From: Anaerolineales bacterium
GTDB lineage: Bacteria; Chloroflexota; Anaerolineae; Anaerolineales; E44-bin32
DNA: 64,000 nucleotides
Assembly: GCA_034430595.1 (NCBI GenBank)
Contig: DAOUEL010000078.1
Span: forward strand, 285,013 to 349,012
Direction: 5' to 3'
This document shows positions 1-42,054 of the stretch, in pieces. How positions within the stretch are numbered: the first letter of the stretch is position 1; each line of letters opens with the position of its first letter. The notes below the pieces were generated by a model. The model made no database searches, had not been told where the DNA came from, and saw only the letters and a program-made list of their open reading frames with translations. A program made the position numbers and the translations under genes.

Positions 1-353
1 GCAGTTATCGCGGCGTCAATATCGATGGCCTTGACCCGCTCATGCTGGTTGCGCTGCACGTCTCCTGTACGGGAAAGGAATTTGAGCCGTTAGCGGAGCA
101 GTACCTGCCAGTCGCGCAGGCATCGGAAAGCGGCCCCTGGTTGGTCCAGTTTCCAGCGGAGCTGACCGAATACATCGCCAGCTTGCAACCTCCCGATTAC
201 CCCGCTGCCGCAATGAGTTGGACCGCAGTGAACATGCCAGCCGGTGTGGAACTCTCAAACCAGGCTGGCGAGAAATTCCTAGGCCAAATGGGATATCTTG
301 CTCACACCGCGGTGTTTGACAAGAAAGTACTTTTCCTTTACGTATACAGTTGA
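1..353 (+). CDS. 3' end of a CDS entering from upstream of the window (hypothetical protein)
   Basis: Frame 3 is open from the window edge (SYRGVNIDGLDPLMLVALHV...) to the stop at 351-353. The listed ORF 42..353 starts at an internal Met. No family recognised. Confidence 0.45.
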   Translation, partial: SYRGVNIDGLDPLMLVALHVSCTGKEFEPLAEQYLPVAQASESGPWLVQFPAELTEYIASLQPPDYPAAAMSWTAVNMPAGVELSNQAGEKFLGQMGYLAHTAVFDKKVLFLYVYS

Positions 354-5273: not shown

Positions 5274-7988
5274 TCATGCCGAGTCATTCAACAACATCTG
5301 CCGCAGCACCATGTGTAAGATCCCCCCATTGCGATAGTAGTCAACTTCTACCGGCGTGTCGATGCGGACGCGCGCCTGGAATGATTTCATGTCCCCTGCC
5401 TCGTCCAAGACCTGGATCTGAACCACGTCCCCCGGTTTGAGATCATCCTCGAGACCGAGCACATTGTAGAGCTCCTCGCCGGTGAGCCCGAGCGATGCGG
5501 CATTCTCGCCGGGCAAGAACTCCAGTGGCAGCACGCCCATACCAACCAGGTTGGAGCGGTGAATGCGCTCGAAGGACTCGGCCAGAACGGCGCGCACGCC
5601 AAGCAACTTCGTGCCTTTCGCCGCCCAATCGCGTGAAGAGCCGGTGCCGTACTCCTTCCCGGCAATAACGAGCAGCGGTGTTCCGCGCTGTTCATAAATC
5701 TGCGCCGCATCGAAAATGCTCATCTGTTCCCCTTCGGGCAGAAGACGAGTGTATCCGCCCTCGACGCCGGGCACGAGCAGGTTCTTCAAGCGGATGTTGC
5801 TAAAAGTGCCGCGCGTCATCACCCGGTCGTTGCCGCGCCGGGAGCCGAAGGAGTTAAAATCGCGCACCTCCACTCCGTTCTCGATCAAGTACATTCCGGC
5901 GGGCCCATCGACCGGGATGGCCCCAGCCGGGGAGATGTGGTCGGTCGTGATCGAATCGCCCAGTAGGGCAAGCGCGCGCGCGCCCTCGATGCCCGTGATC
6001 GGCTCGGTTTCTGCCTCCAGGGCGAGGAAAAAGGGAGGCTCCTGGATGTAAGTTGATTCATCCCGCCAGGGGTAAATATCGCCACCCGAAACCGGGATCT
6101 CATTCCAGGTTTCATTGCCGGTGAAGACGTCGTGGTAACGGGAACGGAACATATCCGGCGTCAGGCTGGCTTCAACCACAGACCGAATCTCGGATGCCTC
6201 GGGCCAAATCTGGCGCAGGTAGACTGGTTTCCCGTCCTCACCCGTGCCGAGCGGTTCGTTCAGCAGGTCGATATCAACGGTTCCAGCCAATGCGTACGCA
6301 ACCACAAGCGGTGGTGAAGCCAGATAATTTGCGCGGACGTAAGGGTTGATGCGGCCTTCGAAATTGCGGTTGCCGGAAAGCACCGCGGCAGAGATCAGGT
6401 CTGCTTCGCTGATCGCTTTCACGACCTCGCCCGGGAGCGGGCCGCTGTTGCCGATACAGGTTGTGCAGCCATAACCGACGATGTTAAACCCAAGGGCGGC
6501 CAGCGGTTTCAGCAATCCCCCTGCCTGCAGGTATTCCGTCACCACGCGAGAACCGGGGGCGAGGCTGGTCTTGACATACGGCTTGACGCGCAGCCCGTGC
6601 TCGAGTGCTTTTTTGGCCAGCAGGCCGGCGCCAACCATGACATTCGGGTTTGAGGTGTTTGTGCAGGAGGTGATGGCGGCGATGACGACCGCGCCGTCCC
6701 CGATTGGCACACGGTCACCATTCGTCCGTAACTGAGCCGGCACACGGGGGGTATCCCGCGGGATTCCAAACCCGCCCTCGTTCTTCGACTGGTGGATTCG
6801 GCGTTCAAACTCCGGCTTCATCTGGGATAGGGCGATGCGATCCTGAGGTCGCTTCGGACCAGCGAGGCTGGTTTCAACCGTGCCGAGATCCAGCTCGAGC
6901 AGGTCGCTGAACACGGGCTGGGGCGAGCCGGGTGTGTGAAACAGCCCCTGAGTTTTGCAGTATCTTTCCACGAGCTCGATCAGGTCTTCGTCCCGCCCGG
7001 TCAGGCGCATATAGCGCAGCGTCTCAGCATCGACGGGGAAGAAGCCAACCGTTGCACCGTATTCCGGTGCCATGTTGGCAATCGTGGCCCGGTCTGGCAG
7101 GGACAAATGCTCCAGGCCAGGGCCGAAGAACTCGACAAACTTGCCGACTACCCCGCGCTGCCGCAGCATCTGCGTCACGGTCAGCACCAGGTCGGTTGCC
7201 GTTGAGCCTTCCGGCAGCTGGCCATCCATTCGAAATCCAACCACATCCGGCGCAGGCATGACCATCGGCTGCCCAAGGATCGCAGCTTCAGCCTCGATCC
7301 CACCTACACCCCAGCCGAGAACACCCAACCCGTTGATCATGGTGGTATGTGAATCTGTGCCGACCAGCGTATCCGGGAAAGCTTGCTGCTCGGTTCCAAC
7401 CTGGCGGGTAAGCACGACCTGGGCCAGGTACTCAAGGTTTACTTGATGCACGATACCCGTCGCTGGTGGGACAACCCGGAAATTATCAAAGGCGTCCTTC
7501 CCCCAGCGCAGGAACTCGTATCGTTCGCCGTTCCGCTTGAATTCGATTTCCGCATTCCGCTGCAGGGCTTCCGCCGTTGCAAAGAAATCGACCTGAACCG
7601 AGTGATCGATCACCAGATCGACCGGCACGCGTGGGTTGATATCCTCTGGATTTCCTCCCATGCGGGCCAGGGCCGAGCGCATGGCAGCGAGATCGACAAC
7701 GGCTGGCACTCCAGTAAAATCCTGCATGATGACGCGCGCAGGCTGAAATGGGACGTTTGCACGTGGTGTCAAAATTGGTTTCCAGCCGGCAAGCGCTGTG
7801 ACATCCGCAAGGCTGATTTCACGCTCGTTCACCTGACGCAGCACGGATTCAAGCAGCACTCGAATAGAATATGGGAGTTCAAGCAGCTTCGTATGGCCGG
7901 CCTCTTCCAACGCCGTTAAACGCCAATAAATAAACTCGCCTTTCGATGTGGCGAGCGTGGCCCGTGCATGAAATGGATCAAAGGTCAT
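5274..7988 (-). CDS. acnA: aconitate hydratase A
   Basis: 904-aa product colinear with AcnA/IRP-type aconitases. Recognisable stretches include [31 protein letters not shown] and the C-terminal swivel domain. Confidence 0.97.
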
Positions 7989-20554: not shown

Positions 20555-23158
20555 TCACGCAGCCTGTTCGGATACCTCGCGGGGCTTGATCGCCTCGAAG
20601 GTCAGGCCTTCTGACCCGTGCTCGACATGGATCGTATCTCCGGGTTTGAAGTCGCCGGCCAGGATGCGCAGGGCAAGCGGATCTTGCAGTTCGCGCTGCA
20701 GCGTGCGCTTCAAAGGCCGAGCCCCGTAAACTGGCTCGTAGCCCGTTTCCGCCAGGTAGGCTTTAGCCGCCTCGCTCAGGTCGAGACCAAATCCCTGTTC
20801 TGCCAACCGTGCACGCACCCGCCGGAGCTGGATTTCGACAATTTGCTTTAAATCGCCCATCGTCAGCCGGTGGAAGATGATGATCTCATCGATGCGGTTG
20901 AGAAATTCTGGCCGGAAGTGGCGGGTGAGGAGGTCACGCACCTTCGCTTCGGTTGCCTCGGTGCTGCCCTCGGGATCATCCCACAGTTCCGTACCCAGGT
21001 TGCTGGTCATAATGACAACCGTATTGCGAAAGTCAACGGTTCGGCCCTGGCCATCGGTCAGGCGGCCATCGTCGAGGAGCTGCAGGAGAACGTTGAAGAC
21101 CTCTGGATGGGCCTTCTCGATCTCATCAAAAAGGATCACGCTGTAGGGGCGGCGGCGGACAGCTTCGGTCAATTGGCCACCTTCCTCATAGCCGACATAT
21201 CCTGGGGGCGCACCGATCAGTCTTGAGACGGTATGTTTCTCCTGGTATTCCCCCATGTCAATCCGCACCATGGCGTGTTCATCATCGAAGAGAAATTCGG
21301 CCAGAGCCCGGCCGAGTTCGGTCTTTCCCACCCCGGTCGGCCCCAGGAAAATAAACGAACCGATTGGTCGATCGGGATCCTGCAGACCTGAGCGCGCCCT
21401 CCGAACGGCGTTGGCGACCGCCCGGACGGCTTCGTCCTGCCCGATGACACGCTGGTGCAGGCGGTCTTCCATATGAAGCAGCTTCTGCATCTCGCCTTCG
21501 AGCAGCCGCGAGACAGGGATCCCGGTCCAGCGTGAAACAACGTTGGCGATATCCTCAGCATCCACTTCTTCTTTCAGCAGTGGGGCTTCGGATTGAGCCT
21601 CATGTAAGCGCTGTTCAAGCTCACTCAGCTTGGTCTCAAGCTCGCGCTGGGTTCCATAGCGCAGGCGGGCAGCTTCCTCCAGGTTAGCCTGGCGTTCGGC
21701 GCGTTCAATCTGCAGCCGGGTATCTTCGAGCTGCCCCTTGATATCGCGTATCTCGCCGATAACCCCTTTCTCGGCCTGCCAGCGGCTGGTGAGCTGGCTC
21801 GACTCCTCGCGAAGGTCAGCCAGTTCGCTTTCCAGCTTATCAAGCCGGGTGCGGGAGGCCTTGTCCTTCTCCTTCTTCAACGCTTCGCGCTCGATCTCGA
21901 ACTGCATGATCTGCCGGTCGACTTCATCCAGCGCCTGGGGTTTAGAGTCGATTTCGGTCCGCAGCCTCGCGCCTGCTTCGTCGATCAAATCGATCGCCTT
22001 GTCGGGCAGGAAGCGATCGGCGATGTAGCGATGCGAGAGCGTGGCGGCAGCGATCACAGCGCTGTCCTGGATGCGCACGCCGTGGTGAATCTCATAGCGC
22101 TCTTTCAGGCCACGCAGGATGCTGATGGTATCTTCGACGCTCGGTTCAGCGACGAAGACTGGCTGAAAGCGGCGTTCGAGTGCGGCGTCCTTCTCGATGT
22201 ATTTGCGGTATTCATCGAGTGTTGTGGCGCCAATCATGTGCAGTTCACCGCGGGCCAGCATAGGTTTGAGCATATTTCCGGCATCCATCGACCCTTCGGC
22301 TGATCCTGCTCCGACGACGGTGTGCATTTCGTCGACGAAGAGCAGGATTTCCCCGGCGGCGTCGGTGATTTCGGTCAGAACCGCTTTAAGCCGCTCTTCG
22401 AACTCACCGCGATACTTGGATCCAGCAACCAGCGCGCCCAGGTCGAGCTGCACGATGCGTTTGTTCTTCAAACCCTCCGGCACATCACCGTTGACGATCC
22501 GCTGTGCCAGGCCTTCGACGATCGCCGTCTTGCCAACACCCGGATCACCGATCAGCGCCGGGTTGTTCTTGGTGCGCCGCGAGAGAACCTGAATTAAACG
22601 CCGGATCTCCTCATCACGGCCAATAACCGGATCGAGTTTGCCGCGCCGGGCAAGCTGGGTTAGATCGCGGCCGTATTTTTCGAGCGCCTGAAAGGTATCC
22701 TCTGGATTGGGCGTTACCACGCGCTGTGAGCCGCGAATCGAAGTCAAGACTTTCAGAATAGCTTCCGGTGTGACCCCAAAAGAGCTCAGCGTGTCAGACA
22801 GTGGTCCAGCAGTGAGCGCCAGCAGCAAGTGTTCGGTTGACACATATTCGTCTTTCATGGCCGCAGCCTGTTTTTCGGCTGCCGCGAGTGCCTGCGAGGT
22901 TGAACGTGCCATGCCAGGCTGATCGCCCCCACCAACCATCGTTGGACGCTTCTCGAGCTGTTGTTCAATCTCCTGCAGCAGCATGGCCGGGCTTCCAGCG
23001 ATCTGAGTGACGATAGCCGGAACGACGCCTTCCGGCTGGCGCAGCAGCGCCAGCAGCAAATGCTCTGGCTCAATCGAGGCATGACCCATCTCACGCGCCT
23101 GGTGTTGGGCGTCGATCAATGCCGCCTGGGCTTTCTGTGTATACCGTTCAAGGTCCAT
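20555..23158 (-). CDS. clpB: ATP-dependent chaperone/disaggregase ClpB
   Basis: Clp_N repeats, two AAA+ modules ([15 protein letters not shown] and [15 protein letters not shown]) and a long coiled-coil middle domain. The start is trimmed to the ATG at 23158 ([11 protein letters not shown]), which has a GGAGA SD. The listed 926-aa ORF carries an implausible N-terminal extension. Confidence 0.96.
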
Positions 23159-23281
23159 ATCAACTTCTCCTGAAATCAAGCGTAAGAAACCGTTTGGTTT
23201 GAGCCCTGTCCCCTGCTTCGTAATCCCAGGGCTCAGACAGCTTAATTGTAGGGTCCGCATATATGATGAACGTTGGCACAT

Positions 23282-23312
23282 TATTAACGCAGTATCTGGG
23301 GCGGCGTTAATA
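23282..23312. promoter_or_regulatory. perfect 9-bp inverted repeat TATTAACGC-N13-GCGTTAATA in the clpB/hsp20 divergent intergenic region
   Basis: Read directly from the sequence. It lies 96 nt upstream of the hsp20 ATG and 124 nt upstream of the clpB ATG. It matches neither CIRCE nor HAIR consensus. Confidence 0.4.
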
Positions 23313-23407
23313 GAGTTCCAATATACGTATTGCATCTCTCTGATAATGGACGGATATGATCTATATCATCTGAGAGTAAGTTCACCGAATTAAAGGAGTG
23401 AGAAACG

Positions 23408-23803
23408 ATGACGTACTATTTGGTACCGCGCAAGTATGGCCGTTGGGTTGGATATCGTCCGGTAGGCTTTAACGGCGGACGCCGGCTGCCAGTCGATGTG
23501 CACGCCAGCGGTGATGATTTTGTGATCAGCGCATCCGTACCCGGTTTGAAAGCAGAAGACCTTAAGATCCAGATTCTGGATGATGTTGTTACCTTACAGG
23601 CCGAGGTTCAGGATATGGAGGTGGAATCGGAGACGGTCCTGCTGCGTGAGATCCCCCAGGGAGGCTTTGAGCGCAGCTTGCGGCTTCCGGCTCCACTCGA
23701 TGCCCAGCACGCTGAGGCGAAGATCGAGAATGGATTGCTCACACTGCGAATCCCGAAGTCCGAAGAGGCACGCCCAAAGGTGATCGAAGTCAAGGCACGC
23801 TAA
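23408..23803 (+). CDS. Hsp20/alpha-crystallin small heat-shock protein
   Basis: 131 aa with an alpha-crystallin core (VDVHASGDDFVISASVPGLKAEDLKIQI...FERSLRLP...ENGLLTLRIPK). AAGGAG SD. Confidence 0.93.
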   Translation: MTYYLVPRKYGRWVGYRPVGFNGGRRLPVDVHASGDDFVISASVPGLKAEDLKIQILDDVVTLQAEVQDMEVESETVLLREIPQGGFERSLRLPAPLDAQHAEAKIENGLLTLRIPKSEEARPKVIEVKAR

Positions 23804-23823
23804 GGTATAAATCCTTCTGAGGT

Positions 23824-23859
23824 ACAATGGGCGGCAAATGCCGCCCATTGTTGCTTTTT
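23824..23859 (+). terminator. intrinsic terminator after hsp20
   Basis: ACAATGGGCGGC-AAAT-GCCGCCCATTGT followed by TGCTTTTT. Confidence 0.75.
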
Positions 23860-23869
23860 CGGAGACGGT

Positions 23870-24562
23870 ATGTTCCCCATTCGGGATACAATTCGAAGTC
23901 GTTCCATACCGATCGTCAATTACTCTCTAATCGCTGCGAACGTCCTGGTCTATCTTTTTCAATCAATCCTCTCCCAGCGCGGGTTTCAAACACTATTGGG
24001 GTCGTTTGGATTAATACCAGCCACCTTCACGCTAGCCAGTTCCCACAGCTTGCTGACGATTATTACATCGATGTTCTTGCACGGCAGTTGGTTCCACGTG
24101 CTGAGCAATATGTGGGTGCTATATATCTTCGGTGACAACGTCGAAGATCGGATGGGATCGATCCGCTATCTGATTTTCTACCTGCTGTCTGGAATTTTGG
24201 CAGCGTTGACCCATGTCTTCTTCGCACCTGGGTTGGCGGTTCCAACAGTGGGCGCAAGCGGTGCGATCGCAGGCGTGTTGGGAGCCTATTTCTATCTTTT
24301 CCCGCGCTCCAGAGTGCTGACTTTTGTCCCGCTCTTCATTCTCCCCTGGTTTATCGAAGTCCCGGCGGTAGTCTTTCTCGGTTTGTGGTTCATCTTGCAA
24401 CTGTTCAGCGGCCTGATGATCGGGGGGCTGGCGATGGAAGGCATCGCCTGGTGGGCTCATATCGGTGGCTTTATCTTTGGCTATATCCTGGTCCGGGCTT
24501 TCGTCCCCCGGCCGCGAGTGATGGTCGTCCGACATCAGGGAGATCCATGGTCCTATGGCTGA
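23870..24562 (+). CDS. rhomboid-family intramembrane serine protease
   Basis: Six or more TM helices, with HGSWFHVLSNM, the catalytic GASGAIAGVLGAY and AHIGGFIFG motifs. Confidence 0.9.
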   Translation: MFPIRDTIRSRSIPIVNYSLIAANVLVYLFQSILSQRGFQTLLGSFGLIPATFTLASSHSLLTIITSMFLHGSWFHVLSNMWVLYIFGDNVEDRMGSIRYLIFYLLSGILAALTHVFFAPGLAVPTVGASGAIAGVLGAYFYLFPRSRVLTFVPLFILPWFIEVPAVVFLGLWFILQLFSGLMIGGLAMEGIAWWAHIGGFIFGYILVRAFVPRPRVMVVRHQGDPWSYG

Positions 24563-24644
24563 TACAATCAGCTTGAGCTAATGAGATTTGGGGCAATTTT
24601 GTGCGAATGAAAGCGCAGCTCGAACTGCGCGGGGAGGTCGCGGT

Positions 24645-25406
24645 ATGTCTGAAAAGCCCGTGAAAATCGATGTCAACCAGGCAGGACTGGAGGCCTTAAC
24701 AGTTCTTCCTGGTGTTGGTGAGGAGATTGCCGCCCGGATTATCTCGCGGCGCCCCTACAAGGGGGCTGGCGAACTTTTGAACGTTCCAGGCATCGGTCCA
24801 AAGGGCGTCGAGCGCCTGACCCCCTATCTGGTGTTCAATGCAGAGCCGGGCTCAAACAACCAGGGTGTTCGAAGCACCTCCAGAGGAATGCCCTCACCGG
24901 GCAGTAGATCCGGCGCTGGAGTGGAGAAAGGCGCTCCGGAAGCAGGCCGCGGGATCACTCGCCAGACGCTGCTCTGGTTTTGTCTCGGCACCGGATTGGT
25001 TAGCGTCCTTGTCTCGGTGATCCTGAGCCTGGCGATCCTGGCCGGGATTAACGGCACCTTGAGCATAGAACGCAATGCAAGCATCCGGCAGTTGAATGGA
25101 CGAGCTTCAGCCGCGGAGCAGCAGCTTGAAGAGCTTGGTGCGAGCATCGATTCGCTCGAAACCCGCCTGAAATCCGTCGAAGGACTGAGCGGCAGGATGA
25201 CCACCATGGAAGACGAATTCGCTTCCATGCGAGAACAGGTGGATGCGGCGCGGGCTGAAGTGGATGGAATTCAAACGACTGTGTCGGGCTTGTCCGGGCA
25301 GATCGGATCACTCGAGAGCCGAGTCAGCGTGTTCGACGCCTTCCTGCGCGGGATCGAACGCATCCTGCAGGAGGTTCTCCCGCAGCAGCCAATGGAGGTC
25401 CCATGA
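24645..25406 (+). CDS. ComEA-like helix-hairpin-helix protein with one TM helix and a C-terminal coiled coil
   Basis: IDVNQAGLEALTVLPGVGEEIAARII...LLNVPGIGPKGVERL is a tandem HhH. A TM helix (LLWFCLGTGLVSVLVSVILSLAIL) and a heptad-rich tail follow. ATG at 24645 with a GGAGG SD. Confidence 0.75.
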   Translation: MSEKPVKIDVNQAGLEALTVLPGVGEEIAARIISRRPYKGAGELLNVPGIGPKGVERLTPYLVFNAEPGSNNQGVRSTSRGMPSPGSRSGAGVEKGAPEAGRGITRQTLLWFCLGTGLVSVLVSVILSLAILAGINGTLSIERNASIRQLNGRASAAEQQLEELGASIDSLETRLKSVEGLSGRMTTMEDEFASMREQVDAARAEVDGIQTTVSGLSGQIGSLESRVSVFDAFLRGIERILQEVLPQQPMEVP

Positions 25407-26275
25407 CCGAACAGAACCAGCTACCTGAGAGCGTACCTGAAACGAATCCAGAGGAATCCAGCTCAGCCGCTGCTTCCGGTCGCGGTCCTGGCCCTAGTCT
25501 GGCGGGAAGGATCGGCCGGGTTCTACTTCGCCTGCTGGTTGTTTTTATCCTTGGTGCGGCGTTGGGGGCGGGGATCTACTACGGTGCCATCAAGCTCTAT
25601 CGAGATGCGATCGAACCACTGCGGACGCTCGACACGCGCCTGGAGGACCTGCAGTTCCAGCTCGATCACCAGGCGGCGAACCAGCAGGACCAAATGGTGG
25701 AACTGCGTACTCGCTTGACCGAGCTCGAAGGCCGTGCAGCAGCTATCAACGAGCAGCTCTCCGAACTTGAAGCGCGGGTTGGCGTCCAGCAGGATGACCT
25801 GGGTGCTTTGCAATCTCAGGTTGGCGATTTAACCCAGTTCGAGAGGCGTCTGAATGCGCTGGTCGATGACCAGGAAGCTCTGACGACCCGCATGCAAGAA
25901 CTAGAAGACCTGGTTGCCGGCGGCGACCTGCCAGCGGAGCGAATCGACCGCAACCTGCAGCTGCTGCGGGCCATGACTATCATGACTCGCGCACGAGTGT
26001 CGCTAAACGATTTAAACCTGGGCTTGGCTCAGGCTGACCTTGGCGCGGCGAGTGATATATTGGCTATACTCACGGCAGGAAGCACCGGGCAAGCGGAAGG
26101 TGATTCAGCCGCCGAACCGGGGCTAGTTGAGGCGAGCGATCATCTTTCAGCTGCATTGAGCAATGTGCTCAGCAGGCCAGCGGTGGCCGAAGAAGAACTC
26201 GAGATCGCGTGGAAGTTGTTAATTGAGTTTACTTCATCAACTCTTGAGCCTTCTGTCGATGCGGTGACGGAATAG
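25403..26275 (+). CDS. single-TM coiled-coil protein, unknown function
   Basis: Acidic N-terminus, one TM helix (VLLRLLVVFILGAALGAGIYYGAI) and a long Leu/Glu/Gln heptad region. ATGA start/stop overlap with the upstream gene. GGAGG SD. Confidence 0.7.
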   Translation: MTEQNQLPESVPETNPEESSSAAASGRGPGPSLAGRIGRVLLRLLVVFILGAALGAGIYYGAIKLYRDAIEPLRTLDTRLEDLQFQLDHQAANQQDQMVELRTRLTELEGRAAAINEQLSELEARVGVQQDDLGALQSQVGDLTQFERRLNALVDDQEALTTRMQELEDLVAGGDLPAERIDRNLQLLRAMTIMTRARVSLNDLNLGLAQADLGAASDILAILTAGSTGQAEGDSAAEPGLVEASDHLSAALSNVLSRPAVAEEELEIAWKLLIEFTSSTLEPSVDAVTE

Positions 26276-26292
26276 CCTGGAGGGAGGCGGTA

Positions 26293-26955
26293 ATGCAGGA
26301 ACAGGAAAACGCAAGCCCGGGGCAGGAACCCGAATCGATCAACATGGACGCGGAAGCCGGAATAGACGAACAACGTTCCCCGGTTGAACCGCTGCCTGAA
26401 ACGTCCTCCGCCGAAATGCAACCAGCCCGACCAAGCAGACTGCGGCGCGTTCTCGTCTGGGTCCTCGCAATTCTGCTCGTATTCAGCCTCGGGGTGGGTG
26501 CGTGCTGGCTGACCCAGGTTCAACCCCAGCGTGAATTGATTGCCAGCCTCGAGAGTCGCACGGGGGATGCCGAAGCCCAGGCCGCGAACCTGCAGGCCGA
26601 GGTTACGAGATTATCGCCCTTCGAAGGCGAGAATGAAGCGCTGCGAACTCAGCTCAAGCGCAGCACACAGCATCTCGATCTGCTCTTCGTGCTCGTTGAT
26701 GTGACCAGTGCTCAGCTGGCGATGGTGCAGGAAGATATCCTTGCCGCCAAGGCCGCATTAAGTGGAACGGATGCTCGCCTCGGAAACCTGGAGTCGAATC
26801 TGAGCGGGGCGGAGGCTGAGACAGTGAAAGGGTTAAGTGAGCGGCTGACCTTGGTGCTGGATGAAGTTGAATCAGATGAATTCGCCGCCCGACGCGATCT
26901 TGAAATTCTCGCCAACAACCTGCTTTCGCTGGAGCGATCGCTATTCGGTGAATGA
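26293..26955 (+). CDS. single-TM coiled-coil protein, unknown function
   Basis: Same architecture as 25403..26275: acidic N-terminus, TM helix VLVWVLAILLVFSLGVGACWL, then coiled coil. GGGAGG SD. Confidence 0.7.
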   Translation: MQEQENASPGQEPESINMDAEAGIDEQRSPVEPLPETSSAEMQPARPSRLRRVLVWVLAILLVFSLGVGACWLTQVQPQRELIASLESRTGDAEAQAANLQAEVTRLSPFEGENEALRTQLKRSTQHLDLLFVLVDVTSAQLAMVQEDILAAKAALSGTDARLGNLESNLSGAEAETVKGLSERLTLVLDEVESDEFAARRDLEILANNLLSLERSLFGE

Positions 26956-26977
26956 CTTAATCGAACGGGGTGCGAAG

Positions 26978-27012
26978 GGGCCGCATGCAGCCATGCGGCC
27001 CGTTTTACTTTT
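26978..27012. terminator. intrinsic terminator between convergent operons
   Basis: GGGCCGCATG-CAGC-CATGCGGCCC followed by GTTTTACTTTT. Confidence 0.8.
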
Positions 27013-27104
27013 CCAGGTGCTATGCTTATCTGCTCATAATTTTGCTGATGGACGTACTGCGAGGAAACCGCTCCCCTGAAGGTTAGACCGTGAACGCTTA
27101 TGGG

Positions 27105-28211
27105 TCAGTACCGCAGCAATGCACCGATGTTGCCCATCTGGTCCATCTGCGGGTTGTTATGCATAACCTGCACTTCTCCCCCGTTTTCGATCACACGCTG
27201 AATGGCGAATTCAACCGCATCCTCGATGTACTCGAAATCACCACCGCAAAACGGGCAGGCCGGCATGGAACGCATTGAAAGGTAACCACAGTTCTTGCAG
27301 CGGTGGCCGGGAGCCCGGTACCCATCACGGATCACCAGCGTCTGTACCTTGCCGTCATGGACCGCGTCGAGCGTGTCTTCGAGCCTTATCACGCCTCCCT
27401 CGCCCTTGGCGGCAGAGGTGATGATTGACTCTATCAAGCGTTGATCCTTCAACTGCTCGGCCGATTTTGCCAAAGCCATCGCCTTTTCAAGCACCTGGGT
27501 ATGTCCGGCGGTCATTTCGATCGGGAATGTCCCCAGGGTAAGAGATTGCCAGCGTTTCGGTAGCAGGTCGATCAGGCGCTGTGGGATGGGATCGGTGCCT
27601 CCCACCAGCACCCGTCGGACCTGGTTGGTGGTGAAGAATTCGGTGGCAAACTCGGCAGCCTGACGCAAGTTGCGCTCAACCTTTTCATCACCGTCTCGCG
27701 CCGGATCCACGGAGCTGCTCCGTCGACCGGGTGCGCTCGAGCCTCGGCCGTGTTTGCTCGATCGAACGCTTTCACCAGCTGTGCCCTCCTGCGAGACCAG
27801 TTCCCCGAGATGAAAGTGGAATAAACGTGCTCCCTGACTGTCGACGACGGCCACGCCGAAGTGGCCATAATTATCAAGCAGGTCAGCAAGCGGTTTGACG
27901 TAGGGGGTCTCAAGCAAGCGCGCCCTGCTCCGGAGCGGGAGAGCAAAAATGAAATCGTGGAAGAAGCCAACTTCGGCGCAGGAAAACAAAGCCAGGCTGC
28001 GCCCCGAGCCGTCGTATTCGTGATCGACATACCGTAAAACCCGATCGACATCCTGCGGGGCATGGGCCTCATACTCTTTGACCAGCGCGCGCAGCCGGAG
28101 ACGCACAGTGTCGGCGGCGCCGCTCGAGGGATCCACATCCAGATAGACGCTGAGAACAGGGGCGGCGGGTTTAAATGCGATCATGTCCTGCAGAATACGG
28201 TCGCTGAGCAT
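27105..28211 (-). CDS. archaeo-eukaryotic release factor (eRF1/Pelota)-like protein, bacterial clade
   Basis: The central loop SSKHGRGSSAPG...EKVERNLRQAAEFATEFF resembles eRF1 [32 protein letters not shown]. A CxxC...CxxC ribbon (CKNCGY...CPFCGG) is present. The C-terminal ...GNIGALLRY resembles eRF1/Pelota domain 3 ends. Strong AGGAGG SD. Confidence 0.75.
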   Translation of the reverse strand: MLSDRILQDMIAFKPAAPVLSVYLDVDPSSGAADTVRLRLRALVKEYEAHAPQDVDRVLRYVDHEYDGSGRSLALFSCAEVGFFHDFIFALPLRSRARLLETPYVKPLADLLDNYGHFGVAVVDSQGARLFHFHLGELVSQEGTAGESVRSSKHGRGSSAPGRRSSSVDPARDGDEKVERNLRQAAEFATEFFTTNQVRRVLVGGTDPIPQRLIDLLPKRWQSLTLGTFPIEMTAGHTQVLEKAMALAKSAEQLKDQRLIESIITSAAKGEGGVIRLEDTLDAVHDGKVQTLVIRDGYRAPGHRCKNCGYLSMRSMPACPFCGGDFEYIEDAVEFAIQRVIENGGEVQVMHNNPQMDQMGNIGALLRY

Positions 28212-28258
28212 TGCATGCCTCCTGGCTGTCCTGGACGGGTTAAATCAGCCCGCCGAGG

Positions 28259-29467
28259 TTAAGGGCGTGGGCCAACAGTCAAGGTGAGTTCAACCTCCTG
28301 GTTATCACGAATAATGGTCAGGGTGATCTCCTGCCCAACCTCGGTTTTCTTGAACAGATAGGAGAGCAGGTCATCGAATTGGCGCACGGTGATCCCATCG
28401 ATGGCGATGATCAGATCGCCACCGGCAAGCAAGCCCGGGATGGCGGTCTCGCGTTCCCCGGCCCGCAAGCCTGCACGATCAGCCGGCCCGCCGGGGACGA
28501 CTTCCGTGATATACGCCCCATAAGTGCTGGTCGTGAAGCCCAGCTCCTCGATCGTCTTTAAATTCCAGCGCTCATCATTCAGGCTGCTGATGCCCAGGTA
28601 GGGATAATCATATTGGCCGTTGCTGATGATGTTCGGGACAACACGCCGCAGCAAATTGACCGGCACGGCGAAACCAACACCCGAGTTGGCTGCGCTTCCA
28701 TCGACGGTAAATGATTCGGTTTGAATGGCCCGGTTGATTCCGATGACCTGGCCTTCGAGATTGAGCAAGGGACCGCCCGAGTTGCCCGGGTTTATGGCAG
28801 CATCGGTCTGGATCAAGTCTCCGGCGGAGAAGATCCGGTTGACGCCGGGGGCGGCCCGCTCTGAAGTGAGAGAGCGACCGATGGCCGAAACGACCCCAAG
28901 CGTCATCGTGCCTGACAGGCCGAACGGATTGCCGATTGCAACGACAAAGTCGCCGACCCGCACAAGGTCCGAATCGCCAAGCGGGAGCGGCGAGAGCTGA
29001 TCAGCGGGAAGATCTACCTTCAAGACTGCGAGATCCGAATCGGGATCGGTGCCTATGAGTTCAGCCCAGGCCTTTGCACCGCTGACGAAATCGACCTCGA
29101 TCTCGACTGCTTCAGCAATCACGTGCTGATTGGTGACGATGTGACCCTCACGATCGATGACAAAACCTGAGCCCTGACCGGTAGGCAAGCTTTCGACCTC
29201 GGCGCTGCCCTGGTGTTCGAAGGACCAGATGGTGACAACGCCGGAATTCGCCAGCTCATACAATCCTGCCAGGTCTGCGGAACCGGACGGGAGCGCTTGA
29301 GCCGGAGCGGGTGGCGAAGCGACTGAGGGCGGAGCCTCGCTCGTGGGCAGAAGAACGGCCTGGCTGGTGGCCAGCGGTGGTTCCGTTTGAGGTGCCAACT
29401 GGATTCCACACGCAAGTGAGCTTAATAGCATTCCAATGAATACAAGAACGGTAACTCGTCTTTTCAT
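28259..29467 (-). CDS. HtrA/DegP-type S1C serine protease with PDZ domain (lipoprotein-type signal)
   Basis: Signal peptide ending LSSLAC. Trypsin-fold motifs HIVTNQHV, DLAVLKV and NPGNSGGPLLN. C-terminal PDZ domain. Confidence 0.92.
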   Translation of the reverse strand: MKRRVTVLVFIGMLLSSLACGIQLAPQTEPPLATSQAVLLPTSEAPPSVASPPAPAQALPSGSADLAGLYELANSGVVTIWSFEHQGSAEVESLPTGQGSGFVIDREGHIVTNQHVIAEAVEIEVDFVSGAKAWAELIGTDPDSDLAVLKVDLPADQLSPLPLGDSDLVRVGDFVVAIGNPFGLSGTMTLGVVSAIGRSLTSERAAPGVNRIFSAGDLIQTDAAINPGNSGGPLLNLEGQVIGINRAIQTESFTVDGSAANSGVGFAVPVNLLRRVVPNIISNGQYDYPYLGISSLNDERWNLKTIEELGFTTSTYGAYITEVVPGGPADRAGLRAGERETAIPGLLAGGDLIIAIDGITVRQFDDLLSYLFKKTEVGQEITLTIIRDNQEVELTLTVGPRP

Positions 29468-29510
29468 CGCTACCTATCCTCAGATTTGGGATCAACCGGG
29501 TGCGGCACTC

Positions 29511-30428
29511 TTATTTGTGCCGCTCTTTTGACAGGGATTCGAACAGCTCGCGTTCTTTTTTAGTAAGGTCCTGAGGCAGTTTAACATCGAGATGTGCGTA
29601 CAGGTCCCCCTGGCCCTTACCGCGCAGTTTTGGCATGCCACGGCGCTTTAATCGGAAGCTCTGATCGGGTTGGCTCCCGGCGGGAATGGTGAGCACGACA
29701 TCTCCTCCCGGCGTGGGGATGGTAACTTCACCGCCGAGAACCGCCGTGTAGAGATCGACCTCAACCTCCGTGTGCAGGTCGTCACCCTCACGCTTGAAAC
29801 GGGCGTCAGGTTGAATGTCGACCACCAGGAAGAGGTCGCCGGATTGACGTTGGCCGCTTTCGCCTTTACCGCTGACACGGATCTTTGTTCCGGTCTTCGC
29901 CCCGGGTGGAATCGTCACCTCGAGCGTTTTTCCATCACGCCGGAATGAGCGTGTAGTTCCCGCATAGGCTTCCTGCATCGTAATCTGAATGGGTTGCTCG
30001 ATATCGCGACCGCGGCTGCTAGCCGTACTGCGCGCCGAGCTCTCTTGGGCACCCGTGCCGCCAAATATGGCATTGAAGAAATCGGAAAATCCCCCCCCGA
30101 ACATTTCGCCCAGGTCGCCAACTTCGACTCGAACGCCGCCGGACGTACCGCCGCCCCACTGCGACCAATCGAAGCCTCCTGGCTGACCGCCCATCCTCTC
30201 CCAATCCTGGTAGGTTGAGCCGAGCTGATCATACTTAGAGCGCTTTTCCGCGTCGCCCAGTACTTCGTAGGCTTCATTGATTTCTTTAAAGCGGGTCTCA
30301 GCCTCCGGATTATCCGGATTCTTATCGGGATGATATTTCAAGGCTAATTTGCGGTACTGGCGCTTGATCTCGTCTGCGCTCGCCTTACGATCGACGCCAA
30401 GAACCTGATAGTAATCTTTGTATTCCAT
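29511..30428 (-). CDS. DnaJ-class co-chaperone without zinc finger (CbpA-like)
   Basis: DYYQVLGV...[15 protein letters not shown]-domain, a G/F-rich region and two beta-sandwich C-terminal domains. No CxxCxGxG repeats. Confidence 0.92.
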
Positions 30429-30451
30429 TGTCCTGCGATCTTCCCCTGTTG

Positions 30452-30470
30452 TGATTCCAGGCTGGAATCA
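30452..30470. promoter_or_regulatory. 19-bp perfect palindrome TGATTCCA-GGC-TGGAATCA upstream of the J-protein/HtrA/eRF1-like cluster
   Basis: Read directly from the sequence. It lies 24-42 nt upstream of the start at 30428, in the divergent intergenic region shared with the REC-GAF gene. Confidence 0.4.
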
Positions 30471-30569
30471 TATGAGGTTCGGCTTCTTTGATTCTAACAC
30501 GCGCTGCCTTCAACCCGGGTGACTACGGTAGGAGAGGGACCGGTTAACATTCCGTGCTATCATACTCAC

Positions 30570-39453: not shown

Positions 39454-39505
39454 CGCCATCTATGGGGGAATTAAATCCCACTTTCCCATTCCGGCATGCT
39501 TTCTT

Positions 39506-39514
39506 TGGTAGAAT
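39506..39514 (+). promoter_or_regulatory. extended -10 promoter element TGGTAGAAT upstream of clpC
   Basis: TGnTAGAAT lies 60 nt upstream of the ATG at 39574. Confidence 0.35.
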
Positions 39515-39573
39515 ACGAGTCAATCAGGAGGAATTTGGCAAAATGGCTCGGAGGATTAACGGTGGCCGATAAG

Positions 39574-42054
39574 ATGGAGCGCTTTACGCAGCGGGCTCGT
39601 CGTGTGTTGAGTCTGGCACACGAGGAGGCCGAGCGTTTGCACCACAATTACATTGGTACAGAGCACCTCCTGCTGGGTTTGATTCGCGAAGAGGGGGGTG
39701 TCGCCGGACGTGTGCTGCGGGAACTGGGCCTCGAACCGGCACGTGTGAAAGAAATGGTGGAGCGCTTGACGGGCGTCGGCCGCCACAGCGGTGGCCGCAT
39801 CGAGCTCGCACCCGCCACCGAGCAGGTGCTGCAGCTGGCGATTGACGAAGCACGACGGATGGGCCATCACTACATCGGCACAGAACATCTCCTGCTTGGC
39901 CTGGTCCGACAGGGCGAGGGCGTGGGAGTCGATGTCCTGCGCCGCCTGGGAATTACGCCGGAGCAGGTGCGGCGCCAAACCAGGCGGGTGCTGCAGGAAA
40001 GCCCCACCAGGCGTATGGCTCAGAAAGCTGCTCCGAGCCAGACAAAAGAGCAGGCGAAGACACCTCTGGTCGACCAGCTTGCGACCGATCTGACAGAACT
40101 GGCAGAAGAGGGCAAGCTTGATCCTGTCATTGGCCGTGAGATGGAGATCGAACGCGTGATCCAGATCCTGGCCCGCCGCACAAAGAACAACCCGGCTTTG
40201 ATCGGTGAACCAGGGGTCGGTAAAACCGCCATCGTCGAAGGTTTGGCGCAGCGCATTGTCGCTGGAGAGACGCCAGGGCCATTGATCGGCAAGCGTGTCT
40301 TACAGCTTGACGTAGGCTCGCTGGTCGCTGGCACGATGTACCGCGGTCAATTTGAAGAACGCCTGAAGCGAGTGATTGACGAGCTCAAATCCTCCGAGGC
40401 AATTCTGTTCATCGATGAGGTGCACATGCTCGTTGGGGCGGGTTCGGCCGGTTCTTCGGTCGATGCCGCCAATATACTCAAGCCGGCACTCTCGCGCGGT
40501 GAACTTCAGGTGATCGGCGCCACGACGCTCGATGAGTACCGCAAACACATCGAAAACGACGCTGCACTCGAGCGGCGCTTCCAGCCGGTGATGGTCGAAG
40601 AACCATCGATCGAGGAAACGATAGATATCCTGCGTGGTGTACGCCGGCCCTACGAGGAACACCACAAGCTGATGATCACGGATGAGGCCATCCAATCGGC
40701 CGCCTACCTCTCAGCCCGTTATGTGACCGACCGCTTCCTGCCGGATAAGGCCATCGATCTCATTGACGAATCAGCCTCCCGGGTTCGCATGTACAAGAGT
40801 CCTGAGGCAGTTTCGCTTCGCACGATTATTGGTGAGTTGCGAAAGGTTCGCGAAGCACACGCATTGGCCCTCGAAGAATCGCGTTTCGATGATGCCGAGG
40901 AGCTCGTTCAACGCGAGTCCGAGCTGGAAGAGGAACTGGATCAGCTGCGCGGGGCTTGGGATCGCAGTGAAAGCGGACCGAGGGTTACTGAAGACGACAT
41001 TGCAGAAGTCGTATCGATGTGGACCGGAGTTCCCGTGATGCAGATCGCGGAAGCCGAATCGGCCCGTTTGCTGGAAATGGAAGGCGCGCTGCACGAACGC
41101 ATTATTGGCCAGGACGAGGCCATCAGCGCGATCTCGAAGGCCGTTCGACGTTCACGGGCTGGTCTGAAAGATCCGAAGCGCCCGATCGGTTCCTTTGTCT
41201 TTCTCGGGCCAACCGGCGTCGGGAAGACTGAACTTACAAAAGCCCTGGCGCAGTTCATGTTCGGCTCGGAAGATGCGCTGGTCCAGATCGATATGTCTGA
41301 ACTGATGGAGCGTCATACCGTAAGCCGCCTGGTTGGCGCTCCCCCCGGGTATGTGGGGTATGAAGATGCCGGCCAGCTGACGGAGGCAATTCGTCGTCGA
41401 CCTTATTCGATCGTGGTGTTTGATGAAGTCGAGAAGGCACATCCCGAAGCGCACAACATGCTGCTTCAAATCATGGAAGAAGGACAGCTGTCGGATGCGC
41501 GCGGGCGCAAAGTCGATTTTCGCAACTCGATTATCGTGATGACTTCCAACGTCGGGGCGGATCTGATCAAACGGCAGACCCAACTGGGCTTCGACCTTCC
41601 CAAGGATGCACTTGCAGCGGAACGTCTCGAATACGACGAGATGCACAAGAAGCTCACCGACGCGCTGAAGAAGGTGTTTCGACCGGAATTCCTGAACCGC
41701 GTCGATTCGATCATAGTCTTCCATGCGCTCAGCAAGGAACAGATCGCCGAAATCGTTGACCTGGAGTTGAACAAAGTCTCCGAACGCCTCACCGAACACG
41801 AGATCTCTCTTGCAGCAACCGATGAAGCGCGCTCGAAGCTGGCCGACCTTGGATATGATCCCGAGATGGGTGCACGCCCACTGCGGCGTGTGATCCAGAA
41901 CAAGGTCGAGGACAAGCTTTCCGACGAATTGCTGGCCGGGAGATTCAAGGCCGGCGATAACGTCCAGGTCGATGTCGAGGATGACGAGATTGTCTTAAGG
42001 CTGGCAAAAACCGAGCCAGAGGACGAATCGCAGGAAATCGTCCCGGCAACCTGA
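39574..42054 (+). CDS. clpC: ATP-dependent Clp protease ATP-binding subunit ClpC
   Basis: Tandem Clp_N repeats ([11 protein letters not shown] twice), two AAA+ modules ([15 protein letters not shown] and [15 protein letters not shown]) and a short UVR-like linker instead of the long ClpB M-domain. The start is trimmed to [10 protein letters not shown]. Confidence 0.95.

Follow-up and report, generated by a model that had tools for sequence, protein, structure and literature searches.

Several described bacterial systems resemble parts of the gene module that is the subject of this study. ComEA and PsbU, the closest relatives of the helix-hairpin-helix (HhH) domain encoded by the module, are both extracytoplasmic, and in ComEA the HhH domain lies at the C-terminus, behind a signal or anchor sequence. 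Salmonella TlpA is a coiled-coil thermosensor that is cytosolic and binds DNA in a sequence-specific manner. Few bacterial rhomboid proteases have known physiological substrates, and the well-studied substrates are mostly inserted with the N-terminus outside (N-out). The module described here lies in a 64,000-nucleotide (nt) stretch of an Anaerolineales genome (GenBank assembly GCA_034430595.1, contig DAOUEL010000078.1, positions 285,013 to 349,012 of the forward strand). We call this whole stretch the window, and positions are counted from its first letter unless another locus is named. Anaerolineae have very few cultured and genetically studied members. The module consists of three genes, P1, P2 and P3, behind the genes for a small heat-shock protein (Hsp20) and a rhomboid protease. 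Our analysis supports the view that this triad is an operon-like set encoding putative bitopic coiled-coil proteins, one of which has a ComEA-type HhH domain. We propose, at a probability of about 0.4, that the module forms a membrane-spanning heteromeric coiled-coil complex that serves as a sensor or scaffold in heat or envelope stress. A stress role is suggested because the module sits behind hsp20, and usually behind the rhomboid gene, in a conserved proteostasis island. What appears to be new here is a ComEA-type HhH membrane protein of inverted topology, together with a family of predicted bitopic coiled-coil/four-helix-bundle proteins; the bitopic coiled-coil architecture as a class is itself common. 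Literature searches on rhomboid proteases in heat-shock neighbourhoods, and on Anaerolineae with rhomboid and Hsp20, found no account of this module.

The nearest analogue in functional logic, without homology, appears to be the RseA/DegS/RseP cascade. The likeness lies in a bitopic protein with its N-terminus inside (N-in) and its C-terminus outside that has a cytoplasmic effector and is encoded in a stress cluster alongside an intramembrane protease and one of the HtrA family. However, the intramembrane protease here is a rhomboid instead of a site-2 protease, neither an anti-sigma domain nor a neighbouring sigma factor gene is present, and the cytoplasmic domain is a predicted non-specific HhH; cleavage here is only a proposal. 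The likeness to TlpA is that of a DNA-binding protein in a heat-regulated context whose coil could respond to temperature, and no homology is claimed.

An earlier reading of this DNA, made from its letters and open reading frames (ORFs) alone and called here the sequence-only reading, had assigned a tandem ComEA-like HhH to the first protein, and the profile search agrees: residues 6-62 of P1 match HHH_3 (PF12836) with 49.7 bits against a cut-off of 27 (E=4e-13). By this score P1 is a bona fide HHH_3 member at the domain level. The nearest solved structure is a ComEA-related protein of Thermus thermophilus (2DUY, E=7e-13 over 57 residues), and the LPGVG and G-h-G columns are invariant across 30 P1 homologues. 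P1 resembles ComEA in its HhH2 domain with LPGVG and GIG hairpins (2DUY; ComE operon protein 1, 8DSS) and in being membrane-anchored. In contrast to ComEA, however, its HhH domain is N-terminal and probably cytoplasmic; it is preceded by a hydrophilic N-terminus without signal or anchor, and a transmembrane (TM) segment and a coil follow it. The ComEA family models score P1 at 30.1 against a cut-off of 152.35 (TIGR01259) and at 25.8 against 53.1 (TIGR00426). Among the called genes and scanned ORFs within about 6-8 kb of the module, no comEC, ComF, pilin, secretin or type IV pilus gene was noted. Judged by family cut-offs, domain order, predicted topology and context, all of which fail, P1 is not a ComEA. 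Its HhH domain, carried on a flexible linker, most likely binds DNA non-specifically. Majority-residue frequency in the P1 family is highest in the TM segment (0.68), against 0.61 in the HhH domain and 0.29 in the linker. An AGING motif, with helix-destabilising residues, is invariant at the outer end of the TM helix, and the GLSGR motif of the coil stands 44 residues from the TM segment in every locus where it was found.

Each of the three proteins contains a single strongly hydrophobic segment (Kyte-Doolittle maxima 2.5-2.7; approximate limits in Table 1). Hydrophobic power at a period of 3.5 residues lies above 2000 of 2000 shuffles for residues 142-245 of P1 and 64-172 of P2, and for residues 76-125 of P3 it is beaten by about 0.1% of shuffles (0.001). 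A soluble N-terminus, one TM helix and a long coil had been proposed for each protein. The TM helix and the coil stand, but a coil throughout does not hold for P2 and P3, which each close with a conserved all-alpha bundle some 100 residues long, and the coil of P3 is short, at about 50 residues. AlphaFold2 models from the family alignments predict for P2 an unbroken helix over residues 33-172 and then a four-helix bundle over 178-280 (mean predicted local distance difference test score, pLDDT, 79), and for P3 a helix over 49-145 that continues into a compact helical bundle, whose last residue is 218 (pLDDT >90 from residue 50). The bundles share the motif LxLLxxhxxhTxAxL in one helix and [FV]Axx[DE][DE]LEIxxxxL in the last. 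Majority-residue frequency is 0.61-0.62 in the TM helices of P2 and P3 and 0.73 in the P3 bundle. P3 forms the largest family (780 representatives at 50% identity, E<=1e-3) and exceeds P1 and P2 in both spread and conservation. The acidic N-termini described for the second and third proteins are borne out by family mean net charges of -2.5 (P2) and -9.2 (P3).

The sequence-only reading had also recognised no characterised family for P2 and P3, and our searches concur, since neither protein falls into a curated family in Pfam, NCBIfam, PADLOC, PDB sequence searches or Foldseek. PDB profile searches with the two family alignments returned generic coiled-coil matches only, and when the P2 and P3 models were compared with PDB structures by Foldseek, nothing reached E<=1e-3, the top matches being mostly unrelated helical proteins such as cytochrome oxidase subunits and the four-helix bundles FliS, PsbQ and cytochrome b562 fusions. 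Several other identities were considered and rejected. The names that annotation pipelines give to homologues, namely prefoldin subunit 5, SlyX, FtsB, RodZ and RecN, are coiled-coil artefacts, and the PADLOC matches to LmuB, JetC and ZorA (12-17 bits) are coiled-coil noise. A match to FcmC of the cyanobacterial actin-like system (14-15 bits against a cut-off of 90) is irrelevant. Escherichia coli HemX (PF04375) has a similar acidic or disordered tail, TM helix and long helical ectodomain, and there is a weak match to NCBIfam HemX (PRK10920) over the N-terminal 127 residues as well as a resemblance in motif. However, hhalign against E. coli HemX gave probabilities of 9.5% with the P2 profile and 0.4% with the P3 profile, in a comparison whose sensitivity is limited by the single HemX sequence.

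Family alignments of 30 (P1), 31 (P2) and 38 (P3) homologues were compared as profiles. P2 and P3 match over the C-terminal bundle (hhalign probability 97.7%, E=2.4e-12), and P1 and P2 match over the TM segment plus coil (95.5%, E=1.6e-8); the comparison of P1 with P3 was not significant. The hidden Markov models (HMMs) of the three families match one another's members in the window and nothing else in it. In addition, proteins P0086-P0088 are natural single-gene fusions, in which an HhH domain and a linker precede a P2-type TM segment, coil and four-helix bundle. From these profile matches, HMM cross-matches and HhH-P2 fusions we conclude that P1, P2 and P3 are paralogues that descend from a putative ancestral HhH-TM-coil-bundle protein. 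The fusion gene in locus L004 (6001-7053) lies outside a heat-shock context and adjoins genes for a SpoIIAA-like STAS protein and a phosphoglucomutase.

The bias of lysine plus arginine (K+R) around the TM segment predicts an N-in orientation for 35 of the 38 P3 sequences and for P2 in 16 cases against 5. P1 has no signal peptide, no hydrophobic N-terminal signal was seen in the aligned P1 homologues, and in the HhH-P2 fusions (P0086-P0088) a K/R-rich segment lies between the HhH domain and the TM segment. Because of the charge bias, this K/R-rich flank and the absence of a signal peptide from P1, the HhH domain most likely lies in the cytoplasm, with the acidic stalks and bundles on the outer side. 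The ectodomains are strongly acidic (mean net charges -9 to -26). Their stalks vary in length by exactly one heptad: the distance from the TM segment to the FDxF motif of P1 is 94 residues, or 101 in one lineage, and that from the TM segment to the bundle of P3 is 58, or 51 in the clade without P1. PDB matches of the P2 coil include the trimeric coiled coils of reovirus sigma-1, P22 gp26 and coronavirus spike HR regions. Taken together, the conserved TM helices, heptad-locked stalks and trimeric matches suggest a specific heteromeric, possibly trimeric assembly through TM helices and in-register stalks. We envisage that each protein would be inserted N-in, its C-terminus on the outer side, and that the conserved TM helices and length-locked heptad stalks would form a heteromeric, probably trimeric, parallel coiled coil. 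Such a stalk would reach about 8-16 nm beyond the outer face of the cytoplasmic membrane and would end in a cap made of the P2 and P3 four-helix bundles, which are homologous. P1 would be an accessory subunit that adds a cytoplasmic ComEA-type HhH2 domain for non-specific DNA binding.

Homologues whose source is named all come from metagenome-assembled genomes (MAGs) of Anaerolineales, Anaerolineae or Chloroflexota, and the module is kept in dozens of Anaerolineales MAGs. A genome survey with HMMs for P1, P2, P3 and the genes next to them in the window yielded 26 species-level loci, 24 of them with upstream sequence, and Hsp20 lies directly upstream of the module in all 24 of these. The flanks usually also hold the rhomboid, ClpB, HtrA, DnaJ and a release-factor paralogue of baeRF family 10 (baeRF10). 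About 14 species have Hsp20-rhomboid-P1-P2-P3, most of them with a divergent ClpB and a convergent baeRF10-HtrA-DnaJ block. This is the order in the window (ClpB, then Hsp20-rhomboid-P1-P2-P3, then baeRF10-HtrA-DnaJ), and it recurs in loci fetched via individual proteins. Eight species, which seem to form a single clade, lack both rhomboid and P1 and have Hsp20-P2-P3; one species has Hsp20-rhomboid-P2-P3, and in one Ca. Aquidulcis MAG the order is Hsp20-rhomboid-P3. The core of the module is P3, usually accompanied by P2; P1, and with it DNA binding, is accessory because those eight species retain P2-P3 without it. Within the genome set P1 and the rhomboid co-occur (counts 14/0/2/8, Fisher p=6e-5, kinship ignored). 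A P1-centred metagenome scan added 41 further loci, and P2 follows P1 in every one whose contig extends far enough. With the arrangement kept in more than 40 loci, the concern that the triad might not be conserved in any relative falls away. The link to Hsp20 persists in locus L002 despite a rearrangement that removed ClpB, HtrA and DnaJ. Between the rhomboid gene and P1, this locus has a gene for an NfeD/SDH-type (ClpP-class) membrane serine protease (L002 3334-4188, = L021), and L019 and L025 have a comparable rhomboid-P1 gap, about 0.9-1.1 kb long, which may be filled by the same type of gene.

All the features first described for the transcription of the triad, that is, three consecutive co-oriented genes, an ATGA overlap, a 17-nt gap, strong Shine-Dalgarno sequences and a terminator, are present. 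The overlap lies at 25403-25406, the P2-P3 spacing was read in the sequence, and GGAGG precedes the ATGs of P1, P2 and P3 by 7, 4 and 5 nt, respectively. The P1-P2-P3 gaps measure -14 to 37 nt in nearly all loci. The operon had been thought to begin 82 nt after the rhomboid gene, which ends at 24562; this spacing is correct, but the unit probably starts at hsp20 or at the rhomboid gene and not at P1. The hairpin behind hsp20 ends 19 nt before the rhomboid ATG, and read-through from hsp20 is likely because so short a gap cannot accommodate a promoter. Between the rhomboid gene and P1, neither a promoter-like site nor a forward-strand terminator was found. Because of this as well, and because of the tight gaps within the triad, the genes probably form a single unit, hsp20-(attenuating hairpin)-rhomboid-P1-P2-P3, ending at the terminator at 26978. 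The hsp20 hairpin is probably a partial terminator or attenuator. It is near-identical across the hsp20-rhomboid loci compared, including L001 (3571-3596), L032 (1384-1409) and the distant Ca. Aquidulcis. The pattern GGTACAATGGGCGGC-N4-GCCGCCCATTG matches exactly in 14 of 33 loci, once per locus, with flanks that vary. Such conservation is unusual for a plain terminator, and the hairpin may be an attenuator or a protein-binding palindrome. An Rfam search over 23100-27200, the hairpin included, returned nothing.

Table 1. Coordinates of the module, of the domains of its proteins and of adjoining features in the window (an empty cell means that no value is given)
Feature	Nucleotides	Residues	Strand	Remarks
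P1 gene	24645-25406		+	253 amino acids
P1 HhH2 domain	24660-24830	6-62	+	Pfam and PDB match
P1 variable low-complexity linker		63-107	+	family alignment
P1 near-invariant TM segment, LSLAILAGINGTL	24966-25067	108-141	+	hydropathy, alignment
P1 predicted coiled coil, motifs VEGLSGRM and FDAFLxG	25068-25379	142-245	+	heptad periodicity
P2 gene	25403-26275		+	290 amino acids
P2 acidic disordered tail		1-31	+	
P2 TM segment	25496-25591	32-63	+	hydropathy
P2 predicted coiled-coil helix, about 110 residues	25592-25918	64-172	+	periodicity, AlphaFold2
P2 predicted four-helix bundle	25934-26242	178-280	+	AlphaFold2 model
P3 gene	26293-26955		+	220 amino acids
P3 acidic disordered tail		1-47	+	
P3 RLRR plus TM segment	26434-26514	48-74	+	hydropathy
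P3 short coil		75-124	+	
P3 helical bundle homologous to P2 bundle	26665-26946	125-218	+	hhalign, AlphaFold2
clpB, disaggregase	20555-23158		-	divergent from hsp20; likely start ATG at 23158 with GGAG, not 23335 of the ORF list
Inverted repeat, clpB-hsp20 intergenic	23273-23321		.	core TTAAC-N17-GTTAA at 23284-23310
hsp20, small heat-shock protein (holdase)	23408-23803		+	PF00011, E=1e-19; first + strand gene
Hairpin of 12 bp plus T-run, ACAATGGGCGGC-AAAT-GCCGCCCATTGT	23824-23851		+	3' of hsp20
Rhomboid intramembrane serine protease	23870-24562		+	PF01694, E=3e-37
Intrinsic terminator, 10-bp GC-rich hairpin plus T-run at 26978-27001	26978-27011		+	between convergent P3 and baeRF10
baeRF family 10, aeRF1-like release-factor paralogue	27105-28211		-	PF18854, E=3e-33; convergent
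HtrA/DegP-type serine protease, PDZ, N-terminal signal sequence	28259-29467		-	
DnaJ/CbpA-type co-chaperone	29511-30428		-	J domain plus DnaJ_C

If the module forms a stress complex of the kind we favour, the P2 and P3 ectodomains would share a compartment with the secreted HtrA, which is predicted to be extracytoplasmic because of its N-terminal signal sequence. The TM helices would share the membrane with the rhomboid, and P1 would reach cytoplasmic DNA. The stress module may be under the control of proteases. Several observations weigh against this reading. The charge bias of P1 is evenly split (13 against 13), and the profile similarity of P1 and P2 could be inflated by the composition of TM segments and coiled coils. 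Of the 15 metagenome loci linked to Hsp20, a linkage that in itself favours the reading, 12 have the rhomboid but three have Hsp20-P1 and no rhomboid. Furthermore, a separate lineage has only P1-P2, without Hsp20, rhomboid or P3, in unrelated contexts; the heat-shock linkage, strong in one large clade, is therefore clade-specific and not universal for P1-P2. Synteny within one order could also reflect in part an inherited gene order and not functional coupling. As to the conserved linkage of the triad to the rhomboid gene that was to be checked, it is seen in about 14 species and 12 metagenome loci but is missing from eight species, three island loci and the P1-P2-only lineage. A more specific mechanism, an intramembrane proteolysis switch, is attractive, but we regard it as unlikely. 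In this mechanism stress would destabilise the coil or bundle, HtrA would trim the ectodomain or the rhomboid would act directly, and the rhomboid would cut the near-invariant P1 TM segment, which contains Gly and Asn, and free the HhH domain; the outcome, equally unlikely, would be that the released domain binds DNA for nucleoid protection or gene control. The combined view that P1 is a membrane-tethered DNA-binding protein freed by the rhomboid in stress and that the P2/P3 ectodomain is the stress or temperature sensor appears rather unlikely. The switch would fit the joint presence and absence of P1 and rhomboid in the genome set, the conservation of the P1 TM segment, the highest within P1, with its helix-destabilising AGING, and the conserved neighbourhood of a signal-bearing HtrA and a rhomboid that is catalytically intact by motif. 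The NfeD/SDH-type protease gene between rhomboid and P1 in L002 and L021 would fit as well, and with an N-in topology the HhH domain would be set free in the cytoplasm. However, a predicted N-in P1 would be atypical for a bacterial rhomboid substrate, a ComEA-type HhH without sequence specificity would be unusual for a regulator, P1 occurs with no adjacent rhomboid in the three island loci and throughout the P1-P2-only lineage, and L026 and L032 have the rhomboid without P1.

The sequence-only reading had proposed roles in nucleoid anchoring, DNA uptake or division. The last two are not supported, and the gene context points instead to stress and proteostasis. A housekeeping nucleoid-membrane tether or division/segregation scaffold, whose heat-shock position would be inherited synteny, is in our view quite unlikely. 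A membrane-anchored HhH domain that probably faces the cytoplasm would suit a tether, although this could apply to P1 only and not to the core of the module, in which the eight species with P2-P3 and no P1 show DNA binding to be dispensable. The division role has a parallel in FtsB/FtsL/DivIC, small bitopic N-in proteins that pair via TM helices and extracytoplasmic coils; pipelines label some P3 homologues FtsB or RodZ, and four of the 38 P3 members have weak DivIC matches. However, P1-P3 are 2-3 times longer, P2 and P3 have the bundle, and the context is heat shock instead of dcw. The window P3 gives nothing at E<=1 against DivIC (PF04977) and scores 15.7 against a cut-off of 50 for FtsL_COG5462. 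Among the called genes and scanned ORFs we noted none of the dcw, min, par or SMC genes, and no division gene beside the module in the loci examined, where Hsp20 flanks it instead; the Hsp20 link also outlasts the loss of ClpB, HtrA and DnaJ in L002, which speaks against a division role. A constitutive structural part of the envelope, by which monoderm filamentous Chloroflexi would hold a wall, sheath or S-layer component at a fixed distance or anchor it, seems decidedly unlikely. The strictly kept stalk lengths with indels in heptads, the strongly acidic ectodomains and the large, apparently taxon-restricted family would be in line with it, whereas family-library searches gave no SLH, LysM or peptidoglycan-binding match, and the tight position behind hsp20, without room for a promoter of its own, is hard to square with constitutive expression. 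We strongly disfavour a DNA-uptake or pilus machinery, in which a ComEA-like receptor would work with bitopic alignment proteins like PilN/PilO or GspM. Although the P1 HhH domain is closest to ComEA-type domains, P1 scores far below the ComEA models, carries the domain N-terminally without signal peptide, and would hold it on the side opposite to ComEA, and no competence or pilus gene (ComEC, ComF, pilin, secretin) was noted beside the module among the neighbours examined. GspM/PilO (PF04612, T2SSM) likewise have a short cytoplasmic tail, TM helix and coil, and 17 of the 38 P3 members match T2SSM weakly (16-20 bits against 27.8, profile positions about 20-77 of 160). But the periplasmic ferredoxin-like domain of GspM/PilO is replaced in P3 by an all-alpha bundle (pLDDT >90 in the model), and no secretion or pilus genes were noted among the neighbours examined. 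Both the DivIC and the T2SSM identity were rejected for P3, the matches being below cut-off and confined to the TM segment plus coil.

The findings matter in several respects. The rhomboid gene, fixed between hsp20 and a P1 with a near-invariant TM segment, makes a concrete candidate protease-substrate pair. We know of no earlier case of a rhomboid pathway that delivers a DNA-binding domain to the bacterial nucleoid, and to our knowledge no physiological rhomboid substrate is known in this phylum; if true, release of P1 by the rhomboid would be the first such pathway and would provide a physiological substrate for a bacterial rhomboid in Chloroflexota. A ComEA-type HhH domain on the cytoplasmic side would depart from ComEA and PsbU and suggests a link between the state of the membrane or envelope and the nucleoid. 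P2 and P3 form a family without curated assignment in the libraries searched, and this family seems to be a distinguishing feature of the Anaerolineae heat-shock island. Even if the functional readings fail, the triad is a well-defined family that merits a Pfam entry.

Among the neighbours of the module, the rhomboid has its GASGA (catalytic serine), AHIGG (catalytic histidine) and HxxxN motifs intact. The block of baeRF family 10, HtrA and DnaJ/CbpA-like genes (27105-30428, reverse strand) is conserved and convergent with the triad, and baeRF10 is present in most islands. Burroughs and Aravind (PMC6514570) proposed that baeRF-1 proteins act in ribosome rescue or stress and singled out baeRF family 10 as keeping the catalytic glutamine. 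Its place in a chaperone/protease island suggests a role for this release-factor paralogue in rescue of ribosomes or nascent chains under heat stress. Upstream of the module, a search at <=3 mismatches found no controlling inverted repeat of chaperone expression (CIRCE) and no relevant HspR-associated inverted repeat (HAIR). The inverted repeat between clpB and hsp20 is of the form TTAAC-N15-18-GTTAA, which occurs once in the 64-kb window against 0.03 expected, and in 12 of 25 related loci it keeps a constant place at -119 to -130 relative to the hsp20 ATG. The repeat may serve as operator for a heat-shock regulator that would use neither CIRCE nor HAIR. A perfect palindrome just before the Shine-Dalgarno sequence of P1 (GCGCAGCTCGAACTGCGC, 24613-24630) is probably incidental because relatives do not conserve it between rhomboid gene and P1.

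Two conserved motifs, GTATGATAGCA and TGTTAGAAT, the latter resembling an extended -10, lie in the region in front of dnaJ (30429-30560), which has an equivalent in 17-18 of 24 loci. A response-regulator gene is divergent at this region, and in related loci a response regulator-GAF-histidine kinase comes next. At 39475-42051 on the forward strand lies a second ClpB/ClpC-like AAA+ gene (795 bits against a single-sequence ClpB HMM). The P1-P2 pairs outside the island have varied surroundings, and an association with proteases was considered for them and judged weak at best, as the M50-CBS, HtrA-like and FHA-C11 genes found one to three genes away are not consistent. In L005 and L006 genes for a PAS-GAF kinase and a response regulator with GGDEF precede P1-P2, and a gene for an FHA-Peptidase_C11 protein follows. 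In L041 a two-component system is followed by a P3-like gene and then by P1-P2. In the near-identical loci L048-L050, L055 and L067, P1 lies at about 5995-6876 and P2 at about 6876-7691. The pair is divergent from a gene for a 471-residue calcineurin-like metallophosphoesterase in L050 and L055, an arrangement probably shared by L048, L049 and L067.

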